From Betaproteobacteria bacterium RIFCSPLOWO2_02_FULL_66_14 (GTDB lineage Bacteria > Pseudomonadota > Gammaproteobacteria > Burkholderiales > SG8-39), in the NCBI GenBank assembly GCA_001770475.1, contig MERB01000002.1, positions 37,008-88,029 of the forward strand: a stretch of 51,022 nucleotides of DNA, in the 5' to 3' direction. Made by a program: the position numbers and the translations under genes. Below the pieces are notes generated by a model, which was not told the origin of the DNA, made no database searches, and saw nothing but the letters and a program-made list of their open reading frames with translations. Shown piece after piece: positions 2 to 51,022 of this stretch; within the stretch, counting starts at the first letter, position 1, and every line of letters starts with the position of its first letter.

Positions 2-214
2 GGGAAGGCCGAGGTTTCGCGCGACCTGAACGAGGTACGCGCGCTCGAGGCGGCGCTGCTTCGCTTGGGCGACGGCAGTTATGGCCGGTGCAGCGACTGC
101 GGCGGCGACATCGGTCTCGCGCGCCTGCAAGTCACCCCCGTTGCAGCGCGCTGCATCGACTGCCAGACCCGGCACGAAAAGACCCATGATTACCCGGGAG
201 AGCCACGCCTTTAG
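2..214 (+). CDS. DksA/TraR family C4-type zinc-finger protein, 5'-truncated by the window edge
   Basis: Frame 2 is open from the window start to TAG 212-214. The translation ...YGRCSDCGGDIGLARLQVTPVAARCIDCQTRHEK carries CxxC-N17-CxxC. It is absent from the ORF track because no start codon lies in the window. Confidence 0.7.
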   Translation, partial: GKAEVSRDLNEVRALEAALLRLGDGSYGRCSDCGGDIGLARLQVTPVAARCIDCQTRHEKTHDYPGEPRL

Positions 215-285
215 CGTCCAGGTCGACGTGTCGAGAGGTTTCCTCGGCGCCAAGCGTCGATGGTTGGGGCTGTGGGGAAGGCAGC

Positions 286-522
286 GTGACTTCGAAGTAC
301 GTTTCCAGCCTCAATACGGATCCAAACGGGGTGATTTCGGTCACCTTGCGTGGCATCAGCGGCGCCGTGGATGGAAAGATCGTCACGATGGCGCCGATGA
401 TCGACGCGACAAACCAGGCGACGGCTTCCAATCTCGGAGGGCCGCTGTACGGCTGGCGATGCGGCGGCACCGGGACGACCGTATCGGCGGACATGCTGCC
501 GAGTTCGTGCAGAGGCAATTGA
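286..522 (+). pseudogene. Type IV pilin C-terminal fragment; the N-terminal leader and hydrophobic alpha-helix are missing
   Basis: The 78 aa TSKYVSSLNTDPNGVISVTL...GKIVTMAP...WRCGGTGTTVSADMLPSSCRGN resemble the pilin beta-sheet and the C-terminal disulfide loop (C...C, with LPSSCR at the end). In no frame does the upstream sequence encode an FTLIELMIVVAI-type N-terminus. Confidence 0.55.
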
Positions 523-593
523 AGTGCGACCCGTTCCCTGACCGGGGAAATTGGGATCGCAACGGATTCAGACCGGCATCGCTGCCATTGGAG

Positions 594-876
594 TGGCTCC
601 CCGACCAGGGCTCGAACCTGGGACCTGCGGATTACAGGTACCCCAAGGTTTCCCCTGGGCCTGGACTTTCTCTTGGCCGACCCGCGCAATCGCGGGGACG
701 GTCCGGCGTGTAAAGTCTCTGCACTTGCCCGGTGGCTTGGCCACCTGCTAGCTCAGGATTGCCCTAGACCGCAAGGTCCTTAGGTTTCCCTGACTTAGCG
801 CCGTTTTCACCACCACGTTTCCATGGCGGGCTGCCTACTTGACAGTCCGTCGCTCTACCAACTGAGCTATCGGGGA
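594..876 (-). tRNA. tRNA-Asn(GUU) interrupted by a group I intron; exon 1 is 876..842, exon 2 is 634..594, CCA is encoded
   Basis: The joined exons give the 76-nt sequence TCCCCGATAGCTCAGTTGGTAGAGCGACGGACTGT+TAATCCGCAGGTCCCAGGTTCGAGCCCTGGTCGGGGAGCCA. This folds as a full cloverleaf with anticodon loop CUGUUAA and discriminator G. It is colinear with E. coli tRNA-Asn. There is one A27:C43 mismatch. Confidence 0.85.
635..841 (-). mobile_element. Group I intron, 207 nt, similar in size and motifs to the Azoarcus tRNA-Ile intron, inserted between anticodon nt 35 and 36
   Basis: Helices drawn by hand: P1 is exon CUGU paired to intron GCAG, with a U-G wobble at the 5' splice site. P2 is CCGCCAUG-GAAA-CGUGGUGG; P3 is CGGCG/CGCCG; P4 is GCUA/UAGC; P5 is UCAGG/CCUGA; P6 is GGUGG-CCAAG-CCACC; P7 is GACUUU/AAAGUC; P8 is CCCGCG-AUUG-CGCGGG; P9 is CCCAGGG-GAAA-CCUUGGG. 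The intron ends in G. Motifs GAAACCUAAG and AGAGACU also occur in the Azoarcus ribozyme. Confidence 0.8.
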
Positions 877-1299
877 TCGGATTTCATACTGCCGTGCCCA
901 TCGAATTCCCTTCACCTGCCGGTTCGCGGGCCGCGTCAGTCGCAACTTCGCCTCCCTTACGAGAGGCAAGTTGGCGAGCGGGATTATATAGGTGCAACCG
1001 TTGTCCGGGCAAAAGATGCCGAAGGCGTCCACCTCGCCACGGTAATCCCGGCGTTTGCCGCCACGATGGTACTGGGACGAGGCGACGGGGAACACGACGG
1101 CCACGTTTCTAATTCGCCCGGTCTTGCACTGCACACGCGAAAATACGCCGCCTTCTTCGACGACAGGGTCGTAGCGCGCGTTGTCTCCGAACGGCAGCAT
1201 CACCTTGACGCCGCGCTCGAGCAACGCAGCCATGATCTGAGACTGGGAAACATCCCCGACCCATTTGCTGTTGTTGCGATTCCGGTTGGAAGTGCGCAT
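835..1299 (-). CDS. Small PD-(D/E)XK endonuclease, similar to the intron homing endonuclease I-Ssp6803I, free-standing
   Basis: The track ORF is 835..1308 and an ATG lies at 1299. The segments GDVSQSQIMAALLERGVKVMLPFGDNARYDPVVEEGGVFSRVQCKTG and DAFGIFCPDNGCTYIIP...LRLTRPANRQVKGIRWARQYEI match my recollection of this family. The last 14 codons and the TAG at 835-837 overlap tRNA exon 1 and the first intron nucleotides. Confidence 0.6.
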   Translation of the reverse strand: MRTSNRNRNNSKWVGDVSQSQIMAALLERGVKVMLPFGDNARYDPVVEEGGVFSRVQCKTGRIRNVAVVFPVASSQYHRGGKRRDYRGEVDAFGIFCPDNGCTYIIPLANLPLVREAKLRLTRPANRQVKGIRWARQYEIRSPIAQLVERRTVK

Positions 1300-1323
1300 C
1301 AGGAGCAAGGTGTGAAGACAGCT

Positions 1324-2544
1324 TCAGGACCTGATCACCTTCGCGATCGCCTCGCTGACGTAATCGACGTTGCCGCGGTTCAGTGCCGCGACGCAGATGC
1401 GGCCGCTGTCGATTGCGTAGATGGAAGACTCCTCGCGCAGCCGAGCAACCTGATCCCTGGTCAATCCGGAATACGAAAACATTCCTCTTTGGCGGAGGAT
1501 GAACGCGAAATCCGCATCCGGCGCCCGCCGCTGGATGCCCTCGAGCAGCGCCTGGCGCATGGCCTTGATGCGTTCACGCATCGCGGCGAGTTCCTGCTCC
1601 CACAGCGCGCGAAGTTCCGGCGTCGAAAGCACCGTCGCGACGATCTGCCCCCCCAGCGTCGGCGGATTCGAGTAATTGGCGCGGATCGTCCGTTTCAGCT
1701 GGCTGAGCACGCGCGCCGATTCCTCGCTGCCGGTAGTGACGACGCTCAACGCTCCGACCCGCTCTCCATACAGCGAGAACGACTTGGAATACGAACTGGA
1801 CACGAAAAGCGGCGAATACTCCGTGGAAAAGAGCCGTACCGGGACGCCGTCGGCATCGATGCCGTCGCCGAATCCCTGGTAGGCGATGTCGAGAAACGGA
1901 ATGAGCGCCCGCTCGCGCACGGCTTGCAGCACCTGCCGCCATTGATCCGCCGTGAGATCGGCGCCCGTGGGATTGTGGCAGCAGGCATGCAGCACGACGA
2001 TCGCGCCGGCGGGCATCGACTGCAGGCCCTTCAGCATGGCGCCGAATTCGACCCCCCTGGTGGCCGCATCGTAATAGGGGTAGCTCTCGACCGTGAACCC
2101 CGCGCTCTCGAAGAGCGCGCGGTGGTTTTCCCAGCTCGGATCGCTGATCCAGACCTTCGCCTCGGGCGCCATGCGCCGGAGAAAATCGGCACCGATCTTC
2201 AGACCGCCCGTTCCGCCGAGCGCCTGCACGGTCACCACCCGCCCGTCGCGGACCGCCGTCGATTCCGCGCCGAACAGCAATTGCATCACGGCGCGGTCGT
2301 ACGCCTGCAATCCGTCGATCGGCAGGTAGGCGTGCGGCGCGCCCCTGGCGAGGTGCGCCTGCTCGGCGCGGCGCACGCATTCGAGCAGCGGCACTTTGCC
2401 GTTCTCGTCGTAATAAACGCCGACGCCGAGATTGACCTTGCGCGGGTTCGCGTCGGCGTTGAACGCCTCGGTGACACCGAGAATCGGATCCTTCGGTGCC
2501 ATCGGAACGGAGGCGAGCGGGGAGGGCGGCTGCGGCTGGTTCAT
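1324..2544 (-). CDS. Aspartate/aromatic amino acid aminotransferase (class I, AspC/TyrB type)
   Basis: The N-terminus reads [41 protein letters not shown]-lysine motif [14 protein letters not shown] is present. Length is 406 aa; an alternative start lies at 2502. Confidence 0.9.
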
Positions 2545-2582
2545 CGTGTAGACTCAATCGTTTCTTCGCTGCGATTCTACCC

Positions 2583-4613
2583 GTGCTCGCCGCGTCTCCC
2601 CAAAATCCGTTCCGGCTGCACCAGCCGTTTCCGCCCGCCGGAGATCAACCCGAGGCGATCGCGAAGCTCGCGGGCGGAATCGAGGACGGGCTCTCGTTCC
2701 AGACGCTGCTGGGAGTGACCGGTTCGGGCAAGACCTACACGCTCGCGAACGTGATCGCGCGCCTGGGGCGCCCGGCGCTGGTGCTCGCGCCGAACAAGAC
2801 GCTCGCGGCGCAGCTCTACGCCGAGTTCCGCGGGTTCTTTCCGCAGAACGCGGTCGAATATTTCGTCTCCTACTACGACTACTACCAGCCCGAGGCCTAC
2901 GTCCCGGCTCGCGACCTGTACATCGAAAAGGACAGCTCGATCAACGAGCACATCGAGCAGATGCGCCTGTCGGCGACCAAGTCGCTCATGGAGCGGCGCG
3001 ACGTGGTGATCGTGGCGACGGTGTCGGCGATCTACGGCATCGGCGATCCCTCCGAATACCACGGCATGATCCTGCATCTGCGCCAGGGCGAACGGCTCGC
3101 CCGGCGCGAGCTGATCGCGCGACTGGTCGCGATGCAGTACGAGCGCAACGACCTGGATTTCCGCCGCGGCACGTTTCGGGTCCGCGGCGAGGTGATCGAC
3201 GTATTTCCGGCGGAGCACGCCGAGCACGCCGTGCGCATCACGCTGTTCGACGACGAGATCGAGCAGTTGCAGATGTTCGACCCGCTCACCGGACGGGTGC
3301 TGCATCCGATCGTGCGCTTCACGGTGTACCCCTCGAGCCACTACGTGACGCCGCGCGAGACGACATTGCGGGCGATCGAGGCGATCAAGGCCGAGCTGCG
3401 CGAGCGCATCGAGTTCTTCCAGCGGGAGGGCAAGCTGGTGGAGGCGCAGCGCATCGAGCAACGCACGCGCTTCGACCTGGAAATGCTCGCCGAACTGGGG
3501 TTCTGCAAGGGCATCGAAAACTACTCGCGCCACCTGTCGGGCCGAAAGCCGGGCGAGCCGCCGCCGACGCTGGTCGATTACCTGGCGCCGGACGCGCTCA
3601 TGATCATCGACGAGAGCCACGTCACCATCGGGCAGCTGGGCGGCATGTTCCGCGGCGACCGGTCGCGCAAGGAAAACCTGGTCGACTACGGCTTTCGCCT
3701 GCCTTCGGCGCTGGACAACCGGCCGCTGCGGTTCGACGAGTTCGAATGCATGCTGCGCCAGACGGTGTTCGTTTCGGCGACGCCCGCGGATTACGAGCTG
3801 AAACGCTCGGCGCAGGTGGTCGAGCAGGTGGTACGTCCGACTGGACTCGTCGACCCGCAGGTGACGGTCAAGCCCGCGGCGACCCAGGTCGACGACCTGA
3901 TGTCGGAGATCGCGCTGCGCGTGAAATTGAACGAGCGGGTGCTCGTGACCACGCTCACCAAGCGGATGGCCGAGGAACTGACCGAGTACCTGGCCGAGCA
4001 CGGGGTGCGGGTTCGCTACCTGCACTCCGAGATCGATACCGTGGAGCGCGTGGAAATCATCCGCGACCTGAGGCTCGGGGAATTCGACGTCCTGGTCGGG
4101 ATCAACCTGTTGCGCGAGGGTCTGGATCTGCCGGAGGTGTCATTGGTGGCGATCCTCGACGCGGACAAGGAAGGGTTCCTGCGTTCGGCGCGCTCGCTCA
4201 TCCAGACCATGGGCCGCGCCGCGCGTCACCTGAGCGGCAGCGCGATCCTGTACGCGGACGTGGTCACCGACTCGATGCGGCGCGCGATCGACGAGACCGG
4301 GCGACGCCGCGCGAAACAGGTCGCCTACAACGCCGCGAACGCGATTACGCCGACCGGTGTCACCAAGCGGATCAAGGACCTGATCGACGGCGTGTACGAC
4401 GCCGGGCAGGCGAGCGCCGACCGGCGTGCAGCGCAGGACGTGGCGCGCTATGAGACGATGAGCGAGCGGCAGGTCGCGCGCGAACTGCGGCAACTCGAGA
4501 AGCAGATGCTCGAAAGCGCGCGCAACCTGGAATTCGAGAAGGCGGCGCAGATGCGTGACCGCCTCGCCGAGCTCAAGAAACGCGTCTTCGGCGTCGCTCT
4601 GGCGTCGGACTAG
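2583..4613 (+). CDS. uvrB: Excinuclease ABC subunit B
   Basis: [28 protein letters not shown] (Walker A), a helicase core and a C-terminal UVR domain ([14 protein letters not shown]) are present. The start is placed at the in-frame GTG 2583, because the longer track ORF would overlap the divergent gene. Confidence 0.93.
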
Positions 4614-36723: not shown

Positions 36724-39348
<2,625 letters not shown>

Positions 39349-39376
39349 GGCGAATCGGTAAAATGCGCAGTTTACG

Positions 39377-40279
39377 ATGGACGACGAGCCCAGGGTTCTC
39401 GCGGCGGCACTGACTGATTACGGCACCATTGCCGTTTCGGGCGCCGATGCGCGCGCATTTCTGCACGCCCAGTTGACGAACGACATCTCGGGTCAGACGG
39501 CGCAGCAAGCCCGCCGCGCCGGCTGGTGTTCGCCGAAAGGTCGGCTGCTCGCGAGTTTCCTCGTCGTGCCGCGCGGCGAGGAATTCCTGCTGCAGGTCGC
39601 GCGCGATCTGGTGCCGGTGGTGCTGAAGCGGCTGCGCATGTTCGTGCTGCGCTCGCAGGTGGCGCTGACCGACGCCAGCGACGACTGGTCCCAATACGGC
39701 GTCTGGGGCGCCGGGGCCGCGCACGCGCTCGATGCGCTGGGCGTGTCCGCAGCGCAAGCGGATCTCGAAGTGAATTCCTCGGGCGAACTGATCGCGGTTC
39801 GAATTGCCCCGGCGCACCACCTGCTGCTGGCCGGTGGCGCGCAGCGCGCACGCATCGCTGCGGCGCTGCCGGCGGGCGACGCATCGGACTGGGCGCTCGA
39901 AGAAATCCGCGCCGGGTTGCCGCGCGTCGTCCTCGCCACGCAGGATCTGTTCCTGCCGCAGATGGTGAATCTCGAATTGATCGGTGGCGTCGATTTTCAC
40001 AAGGGCTGCTACCCGGGGCAGGAAATCGTGGCGCGCACGCAGTACCGGGGGCAGCTCAAGCGTCGCATGGTGAGACTGCGCTCGCCGCAGCCGTTGCAGC
40101 CCGGGCAGGACCTCTACGCCGACGACGGTTCCGGCCAGCCGAGCGGAACCGTGGTCAATGCTGCCGGCAGCGAGGCGCTCGCCGTTCTCGCAATCGCCAC
40201 GCTGGAGGCCGATGCCGCGGTGCGCGCTGAGCCCGGCGGCGCGGTGCTCGAGATTCTTCCTCCGACCCGCTCCGGGTGA
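39377..40279 (+). CDS. ygfZ: Folate-binding protein YgfZ (Fe-S cluster repair / tRNA modification)
   Basis: GADARAFLHAQLTNDI and KGCYPGQEIVARTQYRG are present. Confidence 0.88.
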   Translation: MDDEPRVLAAALTDYGTIAVSGADARAFLHAQLTNDISGQTAQQARRAGWCSPKGRLLASFLVVPRGEEFLLQVARDLVPVVLKRLRMFVLRSQVALTDASDDWSQYGVWGAGAAHALDALGVSAAQADLEVNSSGELIAVRIAPAHHLLLAGGAQRARIAAALPAGDASDWALEEIRAGLPRVVLATQDLFLPQMVNLELIGGVDFHKGCYPGQEIVARTQYRGQLKRRMVRLRSPQPLQPGQDLYADDGSGQPSGTVVNAAGSEALAVLAIATLEADAAVRAEPGGAVLEILPPTRSG

Positions 40280-40533
40280 CGCACTTCTACGTCTATTACC
40301 GGATCGATCCGGCGCGCGTGGACGCAACGCGCGGCGCCGTCGAGGAAATTTTCGCGGCGATCGAACGCGGCACCGGGGTGCGCGGTCGCTGGATGCGCCG
40401 GCGCGACGATCCGGGGACCTTCATGGAGGTTTACGAAAACGTAGCGGACGAAGGCGCATTCGAGAACGCGCTCGCGCGCGCAACGGCGCAGTTCGGCGTC
40501 GAACGCAGCACTGAGCGCTTCGTATGTGCCTGA
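40276..40533 (+). CDS. DUF4936-like small protein
   Basis: FYVYYRIDPARVDA...WMRRRDDPGTFMEVYE pattern. Confidence 0.6.
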   Translation: MTHFYVYYRIDPARVDATRGAVEEIFAAIERGTGVRGRWMRRRDDPGTFMEVYENVADEGAFENALARATAQFGVERSTERFVCA

Positions 40534-41216
40534 TCCTGGTCGCCTGGCGAACCGACGCGAAGAATTCTTTCGTGGTCGCAGCGAACCGCGACGAGATCCA
40601 CGCGCGCGCGAGCGCGGCGGCTGCGTTCTGGAACGACGATCGCCAGGTGCTCGCCGGTCGCGACCTCGAAGCGGGCGGAACCTGGCTCGGCATCACCCGC
40701 AGTGGACGGTTTGCCGCCGTCACCAACGTTCGCGGCGGACAGGACCCGAACGCCCGCGAATCGCGTGGGCTGCTGACGAAGCAGTTTCTGCAGAGCACGG
40801 TCGCGCCGCGTGATTATGTCGAAGCCATCGCAGCGCGTGGCGCGGTGCATAGCGGTTACAACCTGCTCGTCGCCGACGCGGACGAGCTGTGGTGGCACTC
40901 GAACCGCAACGGCGCGCCGCGGCGGCTGGAAGCCGGCGTCTATGGCCTGGGCAACGAATCGCTCGACAGCGGCGACGTCGCCGCGGCGAAGCGGCGGTTT
41001 TCCGAGGCCCTTTCGCCTGCGCCGGCGACCGAAGCGCTGCATACCGCGCTCGCCCCGTCGCGCATCGTCAACGGCGCATACGGAACGCGCTGCTCCAGTA
41101 CGCTCGTCGCCACCGCCGGCCGCCTGCGGTTCTCGGAAAGATCGTTCGACGCCCTGGGCGCGGAACTCGCGACCGTCCACTTTGATTTCACCCTCGCCGT
41201 GGGGGGCGTGAGTTAG
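40524..41216 (+). CDS. NRDE family protein (TANGO2-like)
   Basis: MCLILVAWR...VVAANRDE contains the literal NRDE motif. Confidence 0.8.
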   Translation: MCLILVAWRTDAKNSFVVAANRDEIHARASAAAAFWNDDRQVLAGRDLEAGGTWLGITRSGRFAAVTNVRGGQDPNARESRGLLTKQFLQSTVAPRDYVEAIAARGAVHSGYNLLVADADELWWHSNRNGAPRRLEAGVYGLGNESLDSGDVAAAKRRFSEALSPAPATEALHTALAPSRIVNGAYGTRCSSTLVATAGRLRFSERSFDALGAELATVHFDFTLAVGGVS

Positions 41217-41373
41217 CGCGGCCTACGCGATGCTGCGGAAATCACGACCCGGGCGCGAATTTGGGGTTCCCATGATCTGCCGGGTTGGCGCGGTACTGCT
41301 GCGCCAACTCGGCAGACCGATGAACGTCAAAACCGCTCCAGCGGCCGAAACGCGAACATCCTTGTCCGCCTAG

Positions 41374-41793
41374 TCAGAGCTTCCGCCGCATCATTTGGTG
41401 CGGAATCTCCGCATCGAGATAGATTTCGCCCTCTGCGACGAAACCATGCCGGCGATAGAACTCGAGCGCGTGCGTCTGCGCCGAAAGCACAACTTCGAGA
41501 TCCCCGCGTTCGCGCGCGGCGACCACGAGGCGCTCGAGGATCTCGCCGCCGACGCCCTGCCCGCGCCAGGCCTTCAATACCGCCATGCGGCCGATGTGTC
41601 CGTCGGGCAGAAGTCGCCCGGTGCCCACCGCGGCCGCATCGCCGTCGCGAGCGAGCGCATGCACGCATTGCGGATCGAATTCGTCCAGTTCCATCGCCAG
41701 CGGAACGCGCTGCTCCTCGACGAACACCTCGTAGCGGATGCGCGTCGCCGCTTCGCGCACGTCGTTCCAGGCCCCGAGCGATATTCGGATCAT
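41374..41793 (-). CDS. GNAT family N-acetyltransferase
   Basis: RMAVLKAWRGQGVGGEILERLV (acetyl-CoA motif A) and FYRRHGF are present. Only the last 139 aa of the 799-aa track ORF are taken as real. Confidence 0.85.
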   Translation of the reverse strand: MIRISLGAWNDVREAATRIRYEVFVEEQRVPLAMELDEFDPQCVHALARDGDAAAVGTGRLLPDGHIGRMAVLKAWRGQGVGGEILERLVVAARERGDLEVVLSAQTHALEFYRRHGFVAEGEIYLDAEIPHQMMRRKL

Positions 41794-41817
41794 GGCGCAA
41801 AAGTATAATCGCCGGTC

Positions 41818-43788
41818 ATGAGAAGCCTCTGGAGCGACGCCGAGGCCGCGGGGTATCGCGGCCCGCTCGGGCCGCGCGTCTACACTTCGCGCCTGCTCGG
41901 CCGCGAGAAATCGCTCGTGCTGCACGGCGGCGGCAATACGTCGGTCAAGCTTCACGAGGCGAATCTGTTCGGCGAAACCCGCGAAGTGCTGTACGTCAAG
42001 GGCAGCGGCTGGGATCTGGAGACGATCGAAGCCGGGGGATTTGCGCCGGTGCAACTCGATTACGTGCGGCGCCTGGCGGAACTGCCGTTGCTCAGCGACG
42101 CGCAGATGGTAAGCGAACTCGCGACGCATACCCTGCGCACCGACGCGCCCGCGGCGTCGGTCGAGACGCTGCTGCACGCGATCCTGCCGCAGGCCTACGT
42201 CGATCACACACACGCGGACGCCCTGCTTTCGGTGAGCAACGCGCCGAACGGCGAGGAACGGGTGCGCGAGATTTATGCCGACCGCGTCGTGATCGTCCCG
42301 TACGTCATGCCGGGATTCGATCTCGCGGCGCGCTGCGCCCGCGAGCTTGCGCAGCAGGCGGGCGCACGGACGATCGGCATGGTGCTCATGCGGCACGGCC
42401 TGTTTTCGTTCGGCGCAAGTGCGCGCGAGTCGTACGAGCGCATGATCGAACTGGTGAGCCTGGCCGAACGTTACCTCGACTCGAAGGGCGCGTGGCGGCT
42501 GCCGTCGGCCGAACCGCCGCAGCCCGAAGTCCAGCGAACCGAACTCGCTGCGCTGCGCAAGGCGATCAGCGATTGCGCCGGCGCGCCGATGATCCTGCGC
42601 AACAACCGCTCCGGGAGATTCCTCGGATTCGCGCAACGCGCCGACCTCGAGCGGGTGTCGCAGCGCGGTCCGGCGACTCCGGATCACGTCATCCGCACCA
42701 AGGCGACGCCCATGCTGGGGCGGGATGCCGCCGGCTTTGCGCGCCGCTACCGCGAGTATTTCGAGCGCAACGCGCCGTTCGCCCGCGAACCGAAGTCCAT
42801 GCTCGACCCGGCGCCCCGCATGGTGCTCGATCCCGCGCTCGGTTTCGCAGCGGTCGGTCGAAGCGCGAAGGATGCCCGCATCGTCGAGGATCTCTACGAC
42901 CACACCATCGACGTGGTGCTGCGCGCCGAGGCGCTCGGCGGCTGGAGCGCGGTCTCCGAGCGCGACCTGTTCGACGTCGAATACTGGGACCTCGAGCAGG
43001 CGAAACTGAAGCGCGCCGGTGCGCCGCCCGCGTTCGCCGGCGAGGTGGCGATCGTCACCGGCGCGGCCTCGGGCATCGGGCGGGCGTGCGTCGAATCGTT
43101 TTTTGGTCGCGGCGCGGCGGTGGTCGCGCTCGATCGCGATCCAGCCATCGGCACGATCTGGAAACGACCCGATGTGCTCGCGATGACCTGCGACCTGACG
43201 GATATGGAACGCACCGAGGCGGCCCTCGATCTCGCGGTTCGCGAGTTCGGCGGCGCCGACATGCTCGTTCTCAATGCAGGTGTATTTCCCGCGTCCGCGC
43301 CGCTCGAGAGCACGACGCTCGAAGCCTGGCGCAGCGCGATGAGCGTCAACGTGGACGCCAACCTGCGCCTCCTCCAGTCGTGCCATCCTCTGCTCAAACT
43401 CGCGCCGCGCGGCGGGCGCGTCGTCGTGATCGGTTCGCGCAACGTCGCGGCGCCCGGGCGCGGGGCGGCGGCCTACTCCGCATCGAAAGCTGCGCTGAAC
43501 CAGCTCGCGCGAATCGCGGCGCTCGAGTGGGCGAGGGACGCGATCCGGGTCAATTCGATTCATCCCGACGCCGTGTACGACACGGGCCTGTGGACGCCGG
43601 AGCTGCTCGAAGCGCGAGCGATGGCCTACGGACTGAGCGTCGAGCAGTACAAGCAGCGCAATCTCCTTCGAACCGAGGTGGCTTCGCGCGACGTCGCCGA
43701 ACTGGCGGCCGAGCTGTGCGGGCCGTTGTTCGCAAAGTGCACAGGCGTGCAGGTTCCGTTGGACGGCGGCCACGAAGGACTCGTCTGA
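41818..43788 (+). CDS. Bifunctional class II aldolase / short-chain dehydrogenase fusion (YuxG/RhaEW-like)
   Basis: The N-terminal half carries HGGGNTSVK...YVKGSGWDL...VDHTHAD. The C-terminal half carries [18 protein letters not shown] and YSASKAAL (SDR motifs). Confidence 0.88.
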
Positions 43789-43789
43789 A

Positions 43790-44752
43790 ATGAAGATCGA
43801 GCCGCTTCGGTGGCGAGGCGATGCGCTCGAGTTGCTCGACCAGCGCCGGCTTCCCGAGCAGATGGTTTACCTGCGCTGCGCGAGCGCGGAGGCGGTGGCT
43901 GCGGCGATCCGCGACATGGTGGTGCGCGGCGCGCCCGCGATCGGATGCGCGGCGGCGTTCGGCGTCGTTCTCGGCCGCGGTGCGGAATCCGCGTACGAGG
44001 CGCTTGCGAAAAGCCGCCCCACTGCGGTCAACCTGTTCTGGGCGCTGGAGCGGATGCGCGGCGCGCGCGATCTCGAAGCCGAGGCGATTGCCCTCCTCGC
44101 CGAAGACATCGCCACCAATCGCGCCATCGGCGCGCACGGCGCGGCGCTGATTCCGGAGGGCGCGCGAATCCTCACGCACTGCAATGCGGGCGCGCTTGCG
44201 ACCGCCGGATACGGCACCGCGCTGGGCGTGGTTCGCGCCGCGCACGAGGCCGGTCGGCGAATCTCGGTGATCGCGAGCGAGACGCGACCCTACCTGCAGG
44301 GTGCGCGGCTCACGACCTGGGAACTGCAGCAGGAGAACATTCCCGCGACGCTCATCACCGACGGCATGGCCGGCCACCTCATGAGCCGCGGCGAGATCGA
44401 CCTCGTGATCGTGGGCGCAGACCGGATCGCGGCCAACGGCGACGTCGCAAACAAGATCGGCACCTACACGCTCGCGGTTCTCGCGCGCCGGCACGAGTTG
44501 CCCTTCTACGTTGCCGCGCCGGTGTCCACCTTCGATCCGAACATTCCCGACGGCTCGTTGATCCCGATCGAGGAGCGACACGCCGAGGAAGTGACCGGCT
44601 TTCGCGGAGCACGCTGGGCGCCACCCGGAATCGCGGTGCGCAATCCCGCGTTCGACGTCACACCGGCGGAACTCGTCTCGGCGATCGTCTGCGAGAAGGG
44701 GATCGTGCCACGACCCGACGCGGCCGGGCTGCGCGCGCTGCTGCGGTCCTGA
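43790..44752 (+). CDS. mtnA: S-methyl-5-thioribose-1-phosphate isomerase
   Basis: [37 protein letters not shown] and [18 protein letters not shown] are present. Confidence 0.9.
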
Positions 44753-44777
44753 GCTCGAACGGCAAACCGCCCCGGAG

Positions 44778-44815
44778 TTGCCGGACGCTCGTCCAATGCG
44801 TACACTATAGGTGTA
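44778..44815 (+). promoter_or_regulatory. Candidate promoter and operator of the toxin-antitoxin pair
   Basis: TTGCCG-N17-TACACT, with the -10 element embedded in the inverted repeat TACAC-TATAG-GTGTA. GGAG lies 7 nt before the ATG at 44833. Confidence 0.45.
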
Positions 44816-44832
44816 TACATTGGAGATCTCGA

Positions 44833-45066
44833 ATGGATGTCGGTACCCGAGAACTGCGCGAGCGCCTCAGCGACCTGCTCGATCGCGTCGCGCGCGGCGA
44901 GAAAATCGTGGTGCGCCGGCGCGGCCGTCCCGCCGCCGTGCTGGTTCCGGTGGAGCATCGCGGCCGCGGGCTACCCAGCCTCGCGGAATTCCGCGCCCGC
45001 CTGCGACTGCGCGGCCGTCCGATGAGTGCCGAAGTCATTGCCGCACGCGAGGACGAGCGCGCCTGA
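44833..45066 (+). CDS. Type II antitoxin, Phd/YefM-like
   Basis: MDVGTRELRERLSDLLDRVARGEKIVVRRRGRPAAVLVPVE. It is 77 aa and lies directly upstream of a PIN-domain ORF. Confidence 0.85.
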   Translation: MDVGTRELRERLSDLLDRVARGEKIVVRRRGRPAAVLVPVEHRGRGLPSLAEFRARLRLRGRPMSAEVIAAREDERA

Positions 45067-45491
45067 ATCAATACCTCGACACCTCGGTACTCGCACCCTA
45101 TTACGTTCCGGAACCGCTCAGCGAGCGGGTCGAGCGCCTGCTGATGCGCGCGCCACAACTCGTGATCTCGGCGCTCGTAGAAGTCGAATTTGCGTCCGCC
45201 CTCGGACGCCGCGTACGCGTCGGTGATTTGAACGCTGCCTCCGCTCGGGCCGCGCTGACCCAATTCCACGCCCATCAATCCGAAGGGTTCTACCGCCTGA
45301 TTCCGATCGAGCGCTCGCACTTCGATCGCGCGCGGCGCTGGATCGAAACTCTGAGAACGCCGCTGCGCACGCTCGACGCGCTGCATCTCGCGTTGGCGGC
45401 CGATAGCGGCAGCGTCTTGATCACGGCCGACGTCCGGCTTGCGCGCGCCGCGAGCAGCCTTCGGGTCCGTCGGCGCCTGTTGCGCGCCTGA
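45063..45491 (+). CDS. vapC: Type II toxin VapC (PIN-domain ribonuclease)
   Basis: NQYLDTSVL..., VEVEF, LDALHLALA and LITAD supply the conserved acidic positions. The only available start is CTG 45063, which overlaps the antitoxin TGA. Confidence 0.78.
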   Translation: MNQYLDTSVLAPYYVPEPLSERVERLLMRAPQLVISALVEVEFASALGRRVRVGDLNAASARAALTQFHAHQSEGFYRLIPIERSHFDRARRWIETLRTPLRTLDALHLALAADSGSVLITADVRLARAASSLRVRRRLLRA

Positions 45492-45504
45492 CCTGCCGGA
45501 CCGG

Positions 45505-46436
<932 letters not shown>

Positions 46437-47195
46437 TCAGCGCACGCCACGCCGGAACCGATAGCCCTTGTAGGTCATCACCATGCCGTCGGGCGTGATC
46501 TGCTCGAGCTTGAGGTCCGGTGACACCGAGCCGCCCTCACGCAGCAGGAGATCGTTGATTCCGACGAGGCGCTCCTTGGGAACGGGCGAGTAGGCATGGA
46601 CCGTGATCTGCAGTTTCGGGATTTCCACCTGAACCTCGACGGGCAGGTCCGAAAATCTCACGATCGGTTGCTCGGGCGGTGCTTTGCCGGGACGGGAATC
46701 GGCCGTCCCACCGGCAGGCGATTTCGCGGGTGACTTGGGTGCCGGCGCTACGGTTTCGCGCGAACTTCTGCTGGGTCGTGCCTTGACCACGGCTTCAACC
46801 TCAGCGCCGGCCTCTGTCTTTTCGACCGGTTTCGCGACTGGCGCCGGCGCAACCGCAGCCCGAGAGGCAGGCGGAGGTTTCTGCACCGGCGCGGCCGGTT
46901 GCTGCACCCCATCGGCGGGTGCTGCAGCCACGACCGGAGCAGATGAGGGGGTGCTTGCGGGAGGCGCGGCGAGCGGCGCCGATGCCGGCGCAGGTGCGTG
47001 CCGCGCACTTTTCCAGGGCTGCAGCGATCCGATCAGGACCCCTGCGACGAGCAAAGCGCCGCCGAGCATCCAATAGGACATCGATTTTCGCCGTGGCGGC
47101 GCAAGCGTCGCTGCTTGCGGAGTCAGCAGGGTCGGCGTCGCTCCGCGGCGCCGCTGCTCGTCGGACTTCCGGAGTGCATCGAGGATGTAGGACAT
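46437..47195 (-). CDS. gspB: Type II secretion accessory protein GspB/ExeB-like
   Basis: It has the N-terminus MSYILDALRKSDEQRR, a transmembrane segment, an Ala/Pro-rich linker and a C-terminal DLKLEQITPDGMVMTYKGYRF. It follows exeA. Confidence 0.75.
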   Translation of the reverse strand: MSYILDALRKSDEQRRRGATPTLLTPQAATLAPPRRKSMSYWMLGGALLVAGVLIGSLQPWKSARHAPAPASAPLAAPPASTPSSAPVVAAAPADGVQQPAAPVQKPPPASRAAVAPAPVAKPVEKTEAGAEVEAVVKARPSRSSRETVAPAPKSPAKSPAGGTADSRPGKAPPEQPIVRFSDLPVEVQVEIPKLQITVHAYSPVPKERLVGINDLLLREGGSVSPDLKLEQITPDGMVMTYKGYRFRRGVR

Positions 47196-47200
47196 CCCCC

Positions 47201-48835
47201 CTACTCCCCGGGTCCGCGCAGCAGCCTGGGCGCTGAAGAATCGTTCACGCCGCTCAGCCGCATCAGCGTCTGCGGTCCCACGATCCCGTCGGGAATCAGT
47301 CCTTTCGAAAACTGGAACTGCCTCACTTGCTTTTCCATCGCGTCGTCGAATCCGGTTCCCGTAGCGGGAACGGCCTGCCTGCCCTGCCAGACTGCAAGCT
47401 GCCCGGCCAGCCAGGCCACGGCGGGTCCGGTCTGACCGGGCTTGATGCTCTCGCGCGCCTCCGGCGGCGCGCGCCACAGCGCGGTGAAATGTCCCGACCA
47501 TTGGGCGGCGAGCGCGGCAAGCGCGACCGGGCGCGCCTCGCCGCCAAGATCGAGCGTCGCCGACCGTGCGTCGAGCTGCAACAGCGTCGCGAAGAATTCC
47601 TGTCCGTCGGCAGCGCGCAGCGCGAGGATCGCGGGCCGGTTCATCTCGCGCAATTCGTCCATTCCGCCGCGAGCGCTACGGCAGCGCAGGCCGAGGGTTT
47701 CCGCCTGCCGGCAGAGGTCCCCGCCTTCGTAGTTTGCGCCCCAGGCCTTCAGCAGCGCCGCTTGCGCGAGCGCACGGCTGCGGGCGCGCGGTTCGCGCTC
47801 CGGCCACTCGATCGCCTGTGCCAGGCTGGGCACGGGCTTGTCCTGCTGCAGATTCTTCGACGAGTTCGAGGGCGCGGACGTGGCTGCGGATTTCGCGCCC
47901 GCGGCAGGCGCGGACTTCGAGATCTCTCGCAGATCCTGCTGATAGACCGCGACGGCCATCGCACCGCCTGCGACCAGCACCAGAACGGCGATCAACGCCT
48001 GGCGCATCCGAGGCGTCGGGCTCGCTTTCCTGCCGAACACTTCGCTCGCCGCCGTGTCGAGCGTCGCGCGATCGACTCGCTCCTTGCCTTGCACGTAAGC
48101 GCCGAGCAGAGCCCGATCGCACAGCACGTTGATTACGCGCGGAACGCCCTTGCTCAGGCGGTACAGCCGTCCCATGACCGAATCGGGAAACAGTTGCCGT
48201 TCCGCACCCGCAACCTGGAGGCGATGCCGCACGTACGCGGCGACGTCGGGCCGGCTCAACGGGCCGAGGTGATAACGCGCGACGATTCGCTGCGCCAGCT
48301 GTCGCATCGACGGACGCTCGAGCATCGCCAGGAGTTCGGGCTGTCCGAGCAGGATGATCTGAAGCAGCTTGCGCTGGTTGGTCTCCAGATTGGTGAGCAG
48401 GCGCATCTGCTCCAGCACTTCGGCCGAAAGATTCTGCGCCTCGTCGATGATCAGCACGGTGTGCCGGCCGCGCGAATTCGCGTCGAGCAGGTGCGCGTTG
48501 ATGCAGTCCACGAACACCTTGATGCTGGTCGTGCCCGGCGGGCACGCAATGCCGAGTTCAGCGCAGACGGTCTGGAGCAGTTCCTCGACCGTCAGCTTCG
48601 GATTGAAGACGTAGGCGACGTCGCAGGTCGCGGGAACCTGCTCCAGCAGGCAGCGGCAGACCGTGGTCTTGCCCGCACCGACCTCTCCGGTCAGCAGGAC
48701 GAATCCGCCGTCGCCGTTGACGCCGTAGAGCAGGTGCGCGAGCGCTTCCTGGTGACTGCGCGTCATGTACAGGTAACGCGGATCCGGCGCGATCGAGAAC
48801 GGCGCCTCGGCAAAACCGAAATAGCTCAGGTACAT
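47201..48835 (-). CDS. exeA: ExeA/GspA-like AAA ATPase with a C-terminal peptidoglycan-binding domain
   Basis: MYLSYFGFAEAPFSIAPDPRYLY, GEVGAGKTT (Walker A), IIDEAQ and a C-terminal QFQFSKGLIPDGIVGPQTLMRL are present. Confidence 0.85.
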   Translation of the reverse strand: MYLSYFGFAEAPFSIAPDPRYLYMTRSHQEALAHLLYGVNGDGGFVLLTGEVGAGKTTVCRCLLEQVPATCDVAYVFNPKLTVEELLQTVCAELGIACPPGTTSIKVFVDCINAHLLDANSRGRHTVLIIDEAQNLSAEVLEQMRLLTNLETNQRKLLQIILLGQPELLAMLERPSMRQLAQRIVARYHLGPLSRPDVAAYVRHRLQVAGAERQLFPDSVMGRLYRLSKGVPRVINVLCDRALLGAYVQGKERVDRATLDTAASEVFGRKASPTPRMRQALIAVLVLVAGGAMAVAVYQQDLREISKSAPAAGAKSAATSAPSNSSKNLQQDKPVPSLAQAIEWPEREPRARSRALAQAALLKAWGANYEGGDLCRQAETLGLRCRSARGGMDELREMNRPAILALRAADGQEFFATLLQLDARSATLDLGGEARPVALAALAAQWSGHFTALWRAPPEARESIKPGQTGPAVAWLAGQLAVWQGRQAVPATGTGFDDAMEKQVRQFQFSKGLIPDGIVGPQTLMRLSGVNDSSAPRLLRGPGE

Positions 48836-49256
48836 GGACGACTGCAGTCGATCGGCCGCGAGGCAGTCATTATAGGAGCCGGGTCTGCAAGGCCATCCCG
48901 GCGGGCGCAGGAATCACGCCGAAAGCCCTTGAGTTCCCCGCCAGGATGAGGACCGGCCCGCGACGTCGCGCAGCGTATCCAGGGTCCGACGTATCCAAAG
49001 TCAAATGAACCCCTGCCCAGCATCCGTTAATGTGGACTGCATTTGACCTACCTCAAGCGACCTGCAGTCCGGCCTTTGTATGTTCTGCACAGTCCTTTAT
49101 GTTCCATTCAAGTCAAAGCGTTCGGAGCGGAGGCCAAAGTGCAGAGAGAGGGTAGTGCTTGAGCACCCGTGGCTTCCCGGCTGGCCTTGTCGTCGATGGC
49201 GCGATCTCGTTCCTGGTTGCGCCGAACCCACTGATCATTCCTACGGAAAAATAACG

Positions 49257-51022
49257 ATGAAATCCACTCTGGTTCGTGCGGGTCTCGTGGCGTTGATGGT
49301 TGGCGCAATCGCGGGTTGCGGTGGTGGTGGGGGTGGGGGAGGAGCGCCGGCACCGGCGCCAGCGCCAGCGCCAGCGCCAGCACCGGCTGCTCCGGCCGTC
49401 GCTCCGGCGCCGGCTCCGACGGGCACCGCGCCGATCAACGTCGGGACGCTCTCGGCAGACCAGTTCGCGGCGCTCGCGCCGCAGGTTGCGGTCGGCGGAG
49501 CGCTCGTCGCAAGCCCGCCGCAGATCAGTTTCTCGCTGGCTGACGCCAACGGCAACCCGATCATCGGGTTTGGCGGCAAAAGCACTCGAGCCACGGATCC
49601 GAACGGCTACCGTTACAACAACGTGTCGTTCGCGATTGCCAAGCTGATCCCGGGAACGGCAACGACCGGTGCGGGCTCCACGCGCAGCCGCTGGGTCAGC
49701 TACATGGTCGTTACCACGACCAAGGACGCGACGACCGGAGCGCTCACGCAGACCCCGGGCCGTCCAGGCACCGAGAGCATCGGTGAGCTGGTGGACAACG
49801 GCAACGGCACGTACGTCTACAAGTTCTATCGCGACATCTCGGAGGTCGCGCAACTGGTCGCCGATGCGACCACGACCTCGACCAAGGCGGATCTCGGCGA
49901 TCTGGCCTACGACGCGAACGCGGTGCACCGCATGACGATCCAGATTTCTGGCAACGCGCCGGGCACCAGCACCAACACGCCGACCGGGGCGGATTCGGGC
50001 GTCACGGGCGTTCCGATGAAGAACCCCGTCAACGTCGTGTTTGACTTCATTCCCGCAACCGGCAAGGCGGTGGCAGCCGGCGACCCGTCGCGCGACGTCG
50101 TGGCGACGGCGAACTGCAACGAATGCCACAACAAGCTGAACGCGCTCGGCTTCCACGGCAGCGCCCGCTACGAAACCAAGTACTGCGTGGTCTGCCACAC
50201 CGAGCAGCGCAAGTTCGGCCGCGCCAACTCCACGTCGACGGTCGACGCGACGACGAAAGAGGTCAAGCTGAGTGGCTCGACCTACCGTCTGGGCGCAGGA
50301 ACGGCCACCGATTCGCTCAGCAACGGCGACACCGGAGGTGAGGCACTCGGCAATTTCCCGAACTATATCCACAAGATCCACAACGGGTTTTCGCTGAGCA
50401 AGACCGGCTACAACTATGCCAACGTCAAGTTCAACGAGATCGGCTTCTCGATTCTCGAAGAAGGCCAGAGGGCGTGCGCCAAGTGCCACAAGAACTCGGC
50501 TCAGGCCGAGAACTGGAACGCGCTGCCGAGCAAGCTCGCCTGCGGTGCGTGCCATGACGGTATCAACTTCACGACCGGAAAGGGTACGACGCTTGCCAAT
50601 GCGGCCGCAGCCGTAAGCGTGGGCGACGTGATCGCGCAGGGCAATCACCTGGGAGGCGCGATCGAGAATGAAGCGGCCTGCGCCATCTGCCATACGTCGA
50701 GTGCGATCAAGACGGTGCACCAGTTGGTGAACAAGACCACGCACAACCCGACCATCGAGGCGGGCTTGGTGCACTTCACCTACGACATCGCCTCGGCGAC
50801 CGTCGATGCGGCCAACGCCCTGACGGTAAAGTTCAGGATCCTGGCTGCGACGGCTCCCTCGACGACCGCGGCGCCCGTCACGTTCAACACGAGCGGAACG
50901 ACGCTGCTGACTGGTTTCACGGGTGGACCGAGCTTCCTGCTCCCCTACGCCATGACGCAGGACGGCGTCACCAACCCGGCCGACTGGAACAACTTGGGCC
51001 GGGCCAACGGACAGCCGCAAAG
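49257..51022 (+). CDS. MtrC/OmcA-like multiheme c-type cytochrome lipoprotein, 3'-truncated by the window edge
   Basis: The frame is open from ATG 49257 to the window end. The lipobox is LMVGAIAGC, followed by a Gly8 run and an (AP)n linker. A heme-free N-terminal domain of about 290 aa comes next. Five in-frame CxxCH motifs follow: CNECH at 50115, CVVCH at 50184, CAKCH at 50475, CGACH at 50541 and CAICH at 50679. A second heme-free segment follows those. The ORF is not in the track because no stop lies in the window. Confidence 0.85.
   Translation, partial: MKSTLVRAGLVALMVGAIAGCGGGGGGGGAPAPAPAPAPAPAPAAPAVAPAPAPTGTAPINVGTLSADQFAALAPQVAVGGALVASPPQISFSLADANGNPIIGFGGKSTRATDPNGYRYNNVSFAIAKLIPGTATTGAGSTRSRWVSYMVVTTTKDATTGALTQTPGRPGTESIGELVDNGNGTYVYKFYRDISEVAQLVADATTTSTKADLGDLAYDANAVHRMTIQISGNAPGTSTNTPTGADSGVTGVPMKNPVNVVFDFIPATGKAVAAGDPSRDVVATANCNECHNKLNALGFHGSARYETKYCVVCHTEQRKFGRANSTSTVDATTKEVKLSGSTYRLGAGTATDSLSNGDTGGEALGNFPNYIHKIHNGFSLSKTGYNYANVKFNEIGFSILEEGQRACAKCHKNSAQAENWNALPSKLACGACHDGINFTTGKGTTLANAAAAVSVGDVIAQGNHLGGAIENEAACAICHTSSAIKTVHQLVNKTTHNPTIEAGLVHFTYDIASATVDAANALTVKFRILAATAPSTTAAPVTFNTSGTTLLTGFTGGPSFLLPYAMTQDGVTNPADWNNLGRANGQPQ
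49356..49379 (+). repeat. Perfect (GCGCCA)x4 hexanucleotide repeat inside the cytochrome linker
   Basis: Read directly from the sequence. It is embedded in a longer imperfect Ala-Pro coding tract, 49344-49418. Confidence 0.8.

Follow-up and report, generated by a model that had tools for sequence, protein, structure and literature searches.

Does the end of a 51,022-nucleotide stretch of DNA from Betaproteobacteria bacterium RIFCSPLOWO2_02_FULL_66_14 (contig MERB01000002.1, positions 37,008 to 88,029; hereafter the window) encode a surface multiheme cytochrome, and what would such a protein do there? An earlier note, made from the sequence alone, had proposed that positions 49257-51022 of the window carry a plus-strand gene for an MtrC/OmcA-like lipoprotein, hidden under an antisense open reading frame (ORF) of 635 amino acids (aa). 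The analysis showed that the plus frame is the coding one and that its product is virtually certain to belong to the OmcA/MtrC family of decaheme cytochromes and to share its architecture. Taken as a whole, the locus is very probably best explained by an OmcA-like surface decaheme that serves an Mtr porin-cytochrome conduit. Feature coordinates are collected in Table 1.

Coding strand at the end of the window

Translation of the plus strand gave 588 stop-free codons from the ATG at 49257, running past the window end as the earlier note had read. The frame was missing from the ORF list because the lister leaves out any frame that continues past the end of its source. The content of guanine plus cytosine (GC) at its three codon positions was 0.58/0.55/0.83, and the third-position value (GC3) of 0.83 compares with 0.82-0.90 in the window genes uvrB, plsX, fabH and gspA. 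The antisense frame is itself long and open, so that it might be the real gene, or the plus frame might be a decayed pseudogene. However, the antisense ORF has a GC3 of 0.58 and an Arg content of 20%, and a Pfam scan gave no match for it.

Comparison with a sister strain, represented by contig L021 (JGI Ga0080064) from another sample (98.2% nucleotide identity), gave 88 nucleotide differences, 62 of them at codon position 3 of the plus frame. With the plus frame as reference, synonymous differences number 61 and non-synonymous ones 27; with the antisense frame they number 14 and 74. This pattern indicates that the plus frame is under purifying selection. Two further assemblies (L021 and L019, described below) also keep the plus frame unbroken for 916-918 codons, with all ten heme motifs. 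Taken together, the codon-position GC, the strain substitutions and the intact frame refute both alternatives, which can practically be dismissed, and the antisense ORF is a shadow frame of high-GC DNA. The GC3 and synonymous-change patterns thus favour the proposed gene beneath it.

Completion and family assignment of the protein

The window part covers approximately 64% (588/918) of the full protein. Among the GTDB species representatives the best match was only 51% identical and gave no extension of the contig; the remainder was obtained from L019 (ENA ERZ28563641), a 27.2-kb metagenome scaffold found by exact look-up of the neighbouring GspA-like protein sequence. L019 is 99.98-100% identical to window positions 37201-51022 and extends 7.8 kb further; just after the Ala-Pro (AP) repeat it has a 10-N gap, replacing the stretch that codes for residues 48-65, which the window sequence fills. 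Joining the two gave a 918-aa protein in which exactly 10 CxxCH motifs, the number that had been expected, lie in a 5+5 arrangement, motifs 6-10 being at residues 664, 690, 801, 857 and 900 in both L019 and L021. The contig L021 is gap-free here and carries an intact 916-aa allele. The 21 Cys of the full protein are the lipobox Cys and 20 heme Cys (in the window fragment, 11 Cys: one lipobox and 10 heme-motif). By chance, the motif would be rare: shuffles of the 588 residues gave a mean of 0.004 CxxCH and never more than one.

The NCBIfam model TIGR03507 ('OmcA/MtrC family decaheme c-type cytochrome'; model length 672, cut-off 209.3 bits) matched the window fragment with 247.9 bits over model positions 4-368 and the full 918-aa protein with 383.9 bits over positions 4-672, that is, end to end. 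This is the profile match that the earlier note had expected. PF22113 matches the full-length protein twice. A database search gave 411 homologues at E<1e-10, nearly all of 860-980 aa, many of which NCBI or JGI had already labelled as OmcA/MtrC family. They come from metagenome-assembled genomes (MAGs) of Betaproteobacteria/Burkholderiales (Ramlibacter, Rubrivivax, Leptothrix, Sterolibacterium) and from Georgfuchsia toluolica. The closest database protein has 910 aa and 10 CxxCH and is 78% identical, implying that the sequence is a new one from an uncultured lineage. The betaproteobacterial background that had been assumed agrees with the closest named UvrB homologues, which are 85-90% identical and come from Betaproteobacteria/Burkholderiales MAGs.

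Structure comparison gave the same assignment. The AlphaFold2 (AF2) model of the window fragment (mean predicted local distance difference test score, pLDDT, 66.6) had 10 matches at E <= 0.001 in a Foldseek search of the PDB, all of them Shewanella MtrC, OmcA or UndA (E 2.6e-15 to 1e-9), the next unrelated match being at E 8.6e-3. The full-length AF2 model of the 78%-identical homologue (pLDDT 75.6) had 12 matches at E <= 0.001, all to Shewanella OmcA, MtrC, UndA or MtrF and over the whole length of these proteins, with E values of 1.2e-25 to 6e-19 and target TM-scores of 0.54-0.66. The AF2 models, which are heme-free, have the four-domain layout of beta domain I, pentaheme domain II, beta domain III and pentaheme domain IV. 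The protein therefore has the five-plus-five CxxCH layout and the four-domain fold of the OmcA/MtrC family, and the profile and fold matches agree with the earlier proposal of a domain I/pentaheme domain II/domain III order as in the Shewanella-type decahemes.

With the OmcA/MtrC proteins of Shewanella oneidensis (PDB 4LMH, 4LM8; S. baltica MtrC, 6QYC) the window protein shares the TIGR03507 family, the lipoprotein character, the 5+5 CxxCH and the four-domain fold (Foldseek E values of 1e-25 to 1e-19 against these structures). It is, however, approximately 190-250 aa longer than the Shewanella proteins, owing to the Gly/(Ala-Pro) tether, a larger N-terminal region and bigger loops between hemes 2 and 3 and between hemes 7 and 8.

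Domain architecture

The lipoprotein signal that had been read in the sequence is present. The signal peptide reads MKSTLVRAGLVALMVGAIAG-C21 with the lipobox AIAGC at nucleotides 49305-49319; the N-terminus is conserved in the homologues, and Cys21 is nearly invariant (alignment A1). The Gly8/(Ala-Pro)n linker was also found where it had been described, and in the sister strain L021 it is one AP unit shorter (916 vs 918 aa). The (Ala-Pro)n linker region (window 49344-49451) was seen to be unstable or difficult to assemble.

The earlier note had placed a heme-free domain of about 290 aa ahead of the hemes. A heme-free stretch is indeed there, but the folded domain I comprises only approximately 220 aa, because the larger figure takes in about 55 aa of signal peptide and linker. 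The modelled domain I superposes on domain I of Shewanella MtrC/OmcA, and the Pfam families MtrC-MtrF_N and OmcA-like_N match weakly over it.

The five in-frame CxxCH motifs, followed by a heme-free segment as had been claimed, lie at residues 287-475, and the heme-free tail of the fragment comprises residues 480-588. The heme motifs and the putative distal His are invariant in alignments of 38-47 homologues. Among 38 homologues, the five window CxxCH and His300, His372, His375 and His488 are invariant, and His464 is nearly so; the number of conserved His outside the CxxCH motifs of domain II fits one distal His per heme, the model itself being heme-free. Domain II also has an extra loop of approximately 60-90 aa between hemes 2 and 3. 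Domain III, cut by the window end, continues in L019 and L021.

Gene cluster and type of MtrC

The gene order on L019 is the omcA-like window gene, a gene for a helix-hairpin-helix (HhH) protein, mtrC, mtrA and mtrB, followed by a convergent gspF; L021 has the same intact cluster. The mtrA-like and mtrB-like genes that had been expected downstream are thus both there, with scores above the curated cut-offs (Table 1). A linked MtrA decaheme and MtrB porin are common to Shewanella and the present cluster, and so is a tie to type II secretion. With the second pentaheme domain, the profile match and the partner genes all present, the points on which the earlier note had let its proposal depend are answered in its favour.

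The gene next to mtrA encodes a separate protein of 747 aa, and the window gene is not directly upstream of mtrA. The window protein is about 28-31% identical to this core MtrC (28% by BLASTP). In a neighbour-joining tree it falls in a long, HhH-associated clade, apart from the mtrA-adjacent core MtrCs. At the fetched loci, which are partly redundant, 19 of 30 long forms are followed by an HhH gene as against none of 8 core forms, and 7 of the 8 core forms are followed by mtrA. The separate mtrA-adjacent MtrC and the placement in the long clade led us to file the window protein as an accessory (OmcA-like) paralogue and not as the core MtrC. The two also differ in heme spacing, the window protein having 97 aa between hemes 2 and 3 and 111 aa between hemes 7 and 8 as against 64 and 75 aa in its 747-aa neighbour. 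The core MtrC has three spare Cys and the 918-aa protein none.

The resemblance to OmcA has its limits. PF22112, the OmcA-like N-terminal domain, scored 16.9 bits against a cut-off of 27. Because this match is below threshold and there is no spare Cys, the window protein is OmcA-like in role only and not an orthologue of Shewanella OmcA. Unlike Shewanella OmcA/MtrC, it is also followed by an HhH gene.

The MtrB of the cluster has an N-terminal CNLC (residues 34-37, L019 2902-2913) inside a W-x-C-x-x-C-x-F-E motif that is kept in 9 of the 10 MtrB homologues fetched. Fe(III) reduction by S. oneidensis requires the first Cys of the corresponding CXXC motif in its MtrB, according to a report (PMC12175506) that cites Wee et al. 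(2014). The GC content of the mtr cluster is 0.654 compared with 0.675 for the flank, so that composition gives no mark of foreign origin. A search of the window found no further multiheme gene in the 49 kb upstream of the window gene.

A similar arrangement is known. In Baker et al. (2022, mBio, PMC8805035), betaproteobacterial mtrC copies of the Group 4 type have a conserved HhH gene downstream. The Group 4 type and L019 have in common a betaproteobacterial host, a duplicated mtrC beside mtrAB and an HhH gene immediately downstream. The present cluster differs in being wedged between gspAB and gspF, and term searches of that article did not bring up 'type II secretion'.

Linkage to secretion genes and the HhH gene

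The mtr cluster is flanked by gspA and gspB on one side and by gspF (L019 1-819) on the other. The GspB-like gene gave a sub-threshold match to the NCBIfam model T2SS_GspB. Linkage of mtr genes to gspAB/gspDEF recurs in four other contigs (L033, L027, L029, L083) and in G. toluolica (L101). In L033, gspD-E-F (secretion genes at 8-3162) is followed by mtrB-A-C and then by gspAB. In G. toluolica, gspEDC and gspG-N are followed by three long MtrC genes with two HhH genes and then by gspBA (secretion genes at L101 1-9654 and 20527-22688). An insertion of the mtr island between an ancestrally adjacent gspF and gspA was also considered. It was not supported: among 22 GspA loci whose upstream flank spans 5 kb or more, 19 lack both mtr genes and gspF in that flank. 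The secretion genes are found jointly with the mtr genes rather than being in place before them.

G. toluolica is a cultured Fe(III) reducer. The three long MtrC homologues of its strain G5G6 (895, 923 and 926 aa) are 40-45% identical to the window protein and lie with their interleaved HhH genes between gspG-N and gspB-gspA. Membership of the same long clade, the interleaved HhH genes and the adjoining gspB-gspA are shared with the window protein. The arrangements differ in that three copies stand in tandem downstream of gspG-N in G. toluolica, approximately 15 genes from mtrCAB, whereas a single copy lies directly upstream of mtrCAB here.

These linkages bring in an alternative, namely that the long paralogue is undocked from MtrCAB and is released, or deposited in the matrix, by the dedicated type II secretion system. 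Outside the cell it and the HhH protein would then form a module of their own, which may, for example, consist of cytochromes bound to extracellular DNA or to the matrix, or of a shuttle. The preference of HhH genes for long forms over core forms is consistent with it, as are the Sec signal peptide and ComEA-type DNA-binding motif of the HhH protein, the arrays of long paralogues and HhH genes without adjacent mtrAB in four contigs (L002, L004, L006, L015), and the embedding of the G. toluolica long paralogues in a secretion operon. However, the lipobox is kept, so that the window protein is expected to stay membrane-anchored, and in the present organism its gene heads the mtrCAB cluster. We therefore regard an undocked protein as improbable. 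A related suggestion, somewhat less improbable, is that the long MtrC, the ComEA-like HhH protein, the flanking gspAB and gspDEF/gspG-N would form a distinct conserved betaproteobacterial module. In such a module, the dedicated secretion system may export the long tethered decahemes, and the secreted HhH protein may anchor or organise them, for example on extracellular DNA or matrix. If true, this would be a conductive cell-surface construction unlike the Shewanella MtrC/OmcA arrangement.

A conserved box upstream of the gene

A predicted FNR/CRP-type box, which agrees with the consensus TTGAT-N4-ATCAA in 8 of 10 positions, is the one long island without variation in the intergenic alignment (A2). 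All seven of the other loci examined (eight loci in total) have a box with two mismatches or fewer upstream of the homologous gene, mostly at 150-230 nucleotides, compared with a background rate of 0.47 such boxes per kb. A -10-like element lies 29.5 nucleotides from the box centre, which corresponds to class II activator geometry; transcription is predicted to start near 49091. Genes for Crp/Fnr-family regulators stand beside homologues in L002 and L014. The box is thus a putative regulatory site, at which an FNR/CRP-family activator would probably switch on expression at low oxygen.

A promoter and terminator scan found no sigma-70 consensus promoter and no terminator, and nothing in Rfam matched the 5' region (48800-49300). 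At 49193-49212, about 45-65 nucleotides upstream of the ATG, there is a further conserved patch, TCGATGGCGCGATCTCGTTC, likewise without an Rfam match.

Function and direction of electron flow

The earlier note had pointed to extracellular electron transfer, by metal reduction, iron oxidation or electrode interaction. The family profile, the ten hemes and the linked mtrA and mtrB support this, and the protein is in all likelihood a surface-exposed component of the Mtr conduit. It would be an outer-membrane lipoprotein of 918 aa with ten bis-His c-type hemes. By analogy with the Shewanella paradigm and the cultured relative, it would be exported by Sec, receive its hemes in the periplasm, be acylated at Cys21 and then be carried by type II secretion onto the outside of the outer membrane, where the flexible Gly/(Ala-Pro) tether would hold it at the surface. 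Electrons received from the MtrA-MtrB-MtrC porin-cytochrome conduit would pass along the ten-heme staggered-cross chain and be delivered to electrodes, soluble shuttles or insoluble Fe(III)/Mn(IV) oxides, giving the protein the role of an accessory terminal reductase, like OmcA.

Several points weigh against this account. In Shewanella MtrC/OmcA, a CX8C disulfide in domain III reportedly gates flavin binding (work from 2015, attributed to Edwards and colleagues); as the window protein has no Cys outside the lipobox and the heme motifs, such a redox-switch disulfide cannot exist in its domain III. For the last 330 residues and for every partner gene, which the window does not include, near-identical metagenome scaffolds are the only source. 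That the window protein binds heme, is exposed at the surface and has these redox partners is predicted from its sequence. Identity is 14-20% to the solved Shewanella proteins and, as given above, low to its own core MtrC, so that docking onto MtrAB/MtrC is not assured. No gene for a CymA/MtoC-type inner-membrane quinol dehydrogenase was seen in the window, and none was noted among the called genes of L019. Finally, betaproteobacterial Mtr clusters also occur in organisms linked to Mn(II)/Fe(II) oxidation, such as Ramlibacter lithotrophicus (PMC8805035), so that the flow of electrons might go either way.

On direction, sequence data such as these would not settle the matter. The same machine might run in reverse, with Fe(II), Mn(II) or a cathode as donor and the Mtr cluster carrying the electrons inwards. 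In Baker et al. (2022, PMC8805035), most betaproteobacterial clusters fall in Group 4 together with R. lithotrophicus, which expresses mtrCAB on Mn(II), and the group also holds Mn- and Fe-oxide depositing Burkholderiales. Many homologues of the window protein come from Ramlibacter, Rubrivivax or Leptothrix MAGs, and an FNR-type promoter active at low oxygen would suit metal oxidation that is microaerobic or nitrate-dependent as well. However, MtrB bears the CXXC motif linked to Fe(III) reduction in Shewanella, and no mtoD or cyc2-type gene adjoins the cluster in L019. Inward flow is therefore possible, if rather doubtful.

In G. toluolica, GTOL_11402, GTOL_11403 as well as GTOL_11405 were reported to rank with the most abundant proteins when Fe(III) was being reduced (PMC9290046); the long MtrC genes of L101 were equated with these by gene order, not by locus tags. 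On account of the G. toluolica proteomics and of the N-terminal CXXC motif of MtrB, the latter being given little weight, we lean towards a net reductive, that is outward, flow of electrons.

Novelty and relevance

From this gene, an uncultured betaproteobacterium can be recognised as equipped for extracellular electron transfer, and thus for iron/manganese cycling or electrode interaction. The complete mtr cluster can now be recovered, which is useful for genome annotation and ecology. Earlier publications already cover the family, this type of cluster and the HhH neighbour, and standard pipelines would name the protein correctly. The results go slightly beyond routine annotation, and only in the type II secretion/HhH linkage of the long MtrC and in the conserved FNR/CRP-type box. 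Both the secretion linkage and the box are testable in cultured relatives. As a module, the HhH neighbour, the secretion linkage and the long MtrC may be experimentally uncharacterised.

Other features of the locus

Table 1 Features in and beside the window. Positions are those of the window unless marked L019.
Feature	Position	Strand	Evidence or remark
OmcA/MtrC-family decaheme lipoprotein gene, 5' part (588/918 codons), 'long' betaproteobacterial paralogue	49257..51022	+	TIGR03507 above cut-off; 411 homologues; strain comparison
Lipoprotein signal peptide MKSTLVRAGLVALMVGAIAGC, lipobox IAGC, Cys21 acylated residue (predicted), Gly at +2	49257..49319	+	Translation; homologue conservation
Low-complexity Gly8 + (Ala-Pro)n tether, lipid anchor to domain I	49320..49421	+	Translation; length varies between strains
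Domain I, heme-free beta-sandwich/barrel, residues ~56-275	49422..50081	+	AF2 model beta-rich, pLDDT mostly 75-97
Domain II, pentaheme	50082..50726	+	PF22113 (MtrC/MtrF domains II/IV), residues 279-489, 68 bits
CNECH	50115-50129	+	Residue 287
CVVCH	50184-50198	+	Residue 310
CAKCH	50475-50489	+	Residue 407
CGACH	50541-50555	+	Residue 429
CAICH	50679-50693	+	Residue 475
Domain III start, second heme-free beta domain, cut by window end	50727..51022	+	AF2 beta strands, residues 505-516 and 522-532
635-aa antisense 'ORF', shadow frame, non-gene	49113..51020	-	No Pfam match; GC3 0.58; Arg 20%; strain differences
FNR/CRP-type box TTGACCTACCTCAA (predicted)	49043..49056	+	214 nucleotides upstream of ATG
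-10-like TATGTT	49079-49084	+	Class II activator geometry
ComEA-like HhH protein (HHH_3), 121 aa, Sec signal peptide	L019 6382-6747, ~1.1 kb past window end	- (L019)	Directly after cytochrome gene
Core MtrC, 747-aa lipoprotein	L019, after HhH gene		TIGR03507, 505 bits
MtrA/DmsE-family decaheme, 316 aa	L019, after mtrC		TIGR03508, 297.5 bits (cut-off 192.2)
MtrB/PioB porin, 694 aa	L019, after mtrA		TIGR03509, 493.4 bits (cut-off 240)
GspA/ExeA-like gene (AAA ATPase + peptidoglycan-binding domain), type II secretion accessory factor	47201..48835	-	Pfam AAA_22, AAA_16, PG_binding_1; divergent from cytochrome gene
GspB/ExeB-like type II secretion assembly factor	46437..47195	-	Pfam T2SSB; gene call from L019
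YkuD L,D-transpeptidase gene	about 45505-45981	-	Other side of toxin-antitoxin pair; L019 gene calls, Pfam marks
PhdYeFM antitoxin / PIN-domain toxin pair	44833-45066 and 45144-45491	+	L019 gene calls, Pfam marks
IF-2B-family gene	43790-44752		Adjoins toxin-antitoxin pair; L019 gene calls, Pfam marks

The rest of the window is ordinary core chromosome, with tyrB, uvrB, rne, rluC, sppA, plsX-fabH-fabD, degP and others. In the comparison with L021, the 88 differences in 1.76 kb of the cytochrome gene correspond to approximately 5%, compared with 1.8% over the whole 11.5-kb aligned region; the region compared with the cytochrome gene for this divergence was window 39545-49256. The higher strain divergence of the cytochrome gene fits a faster evolution of what would be a surface-exposed protein.

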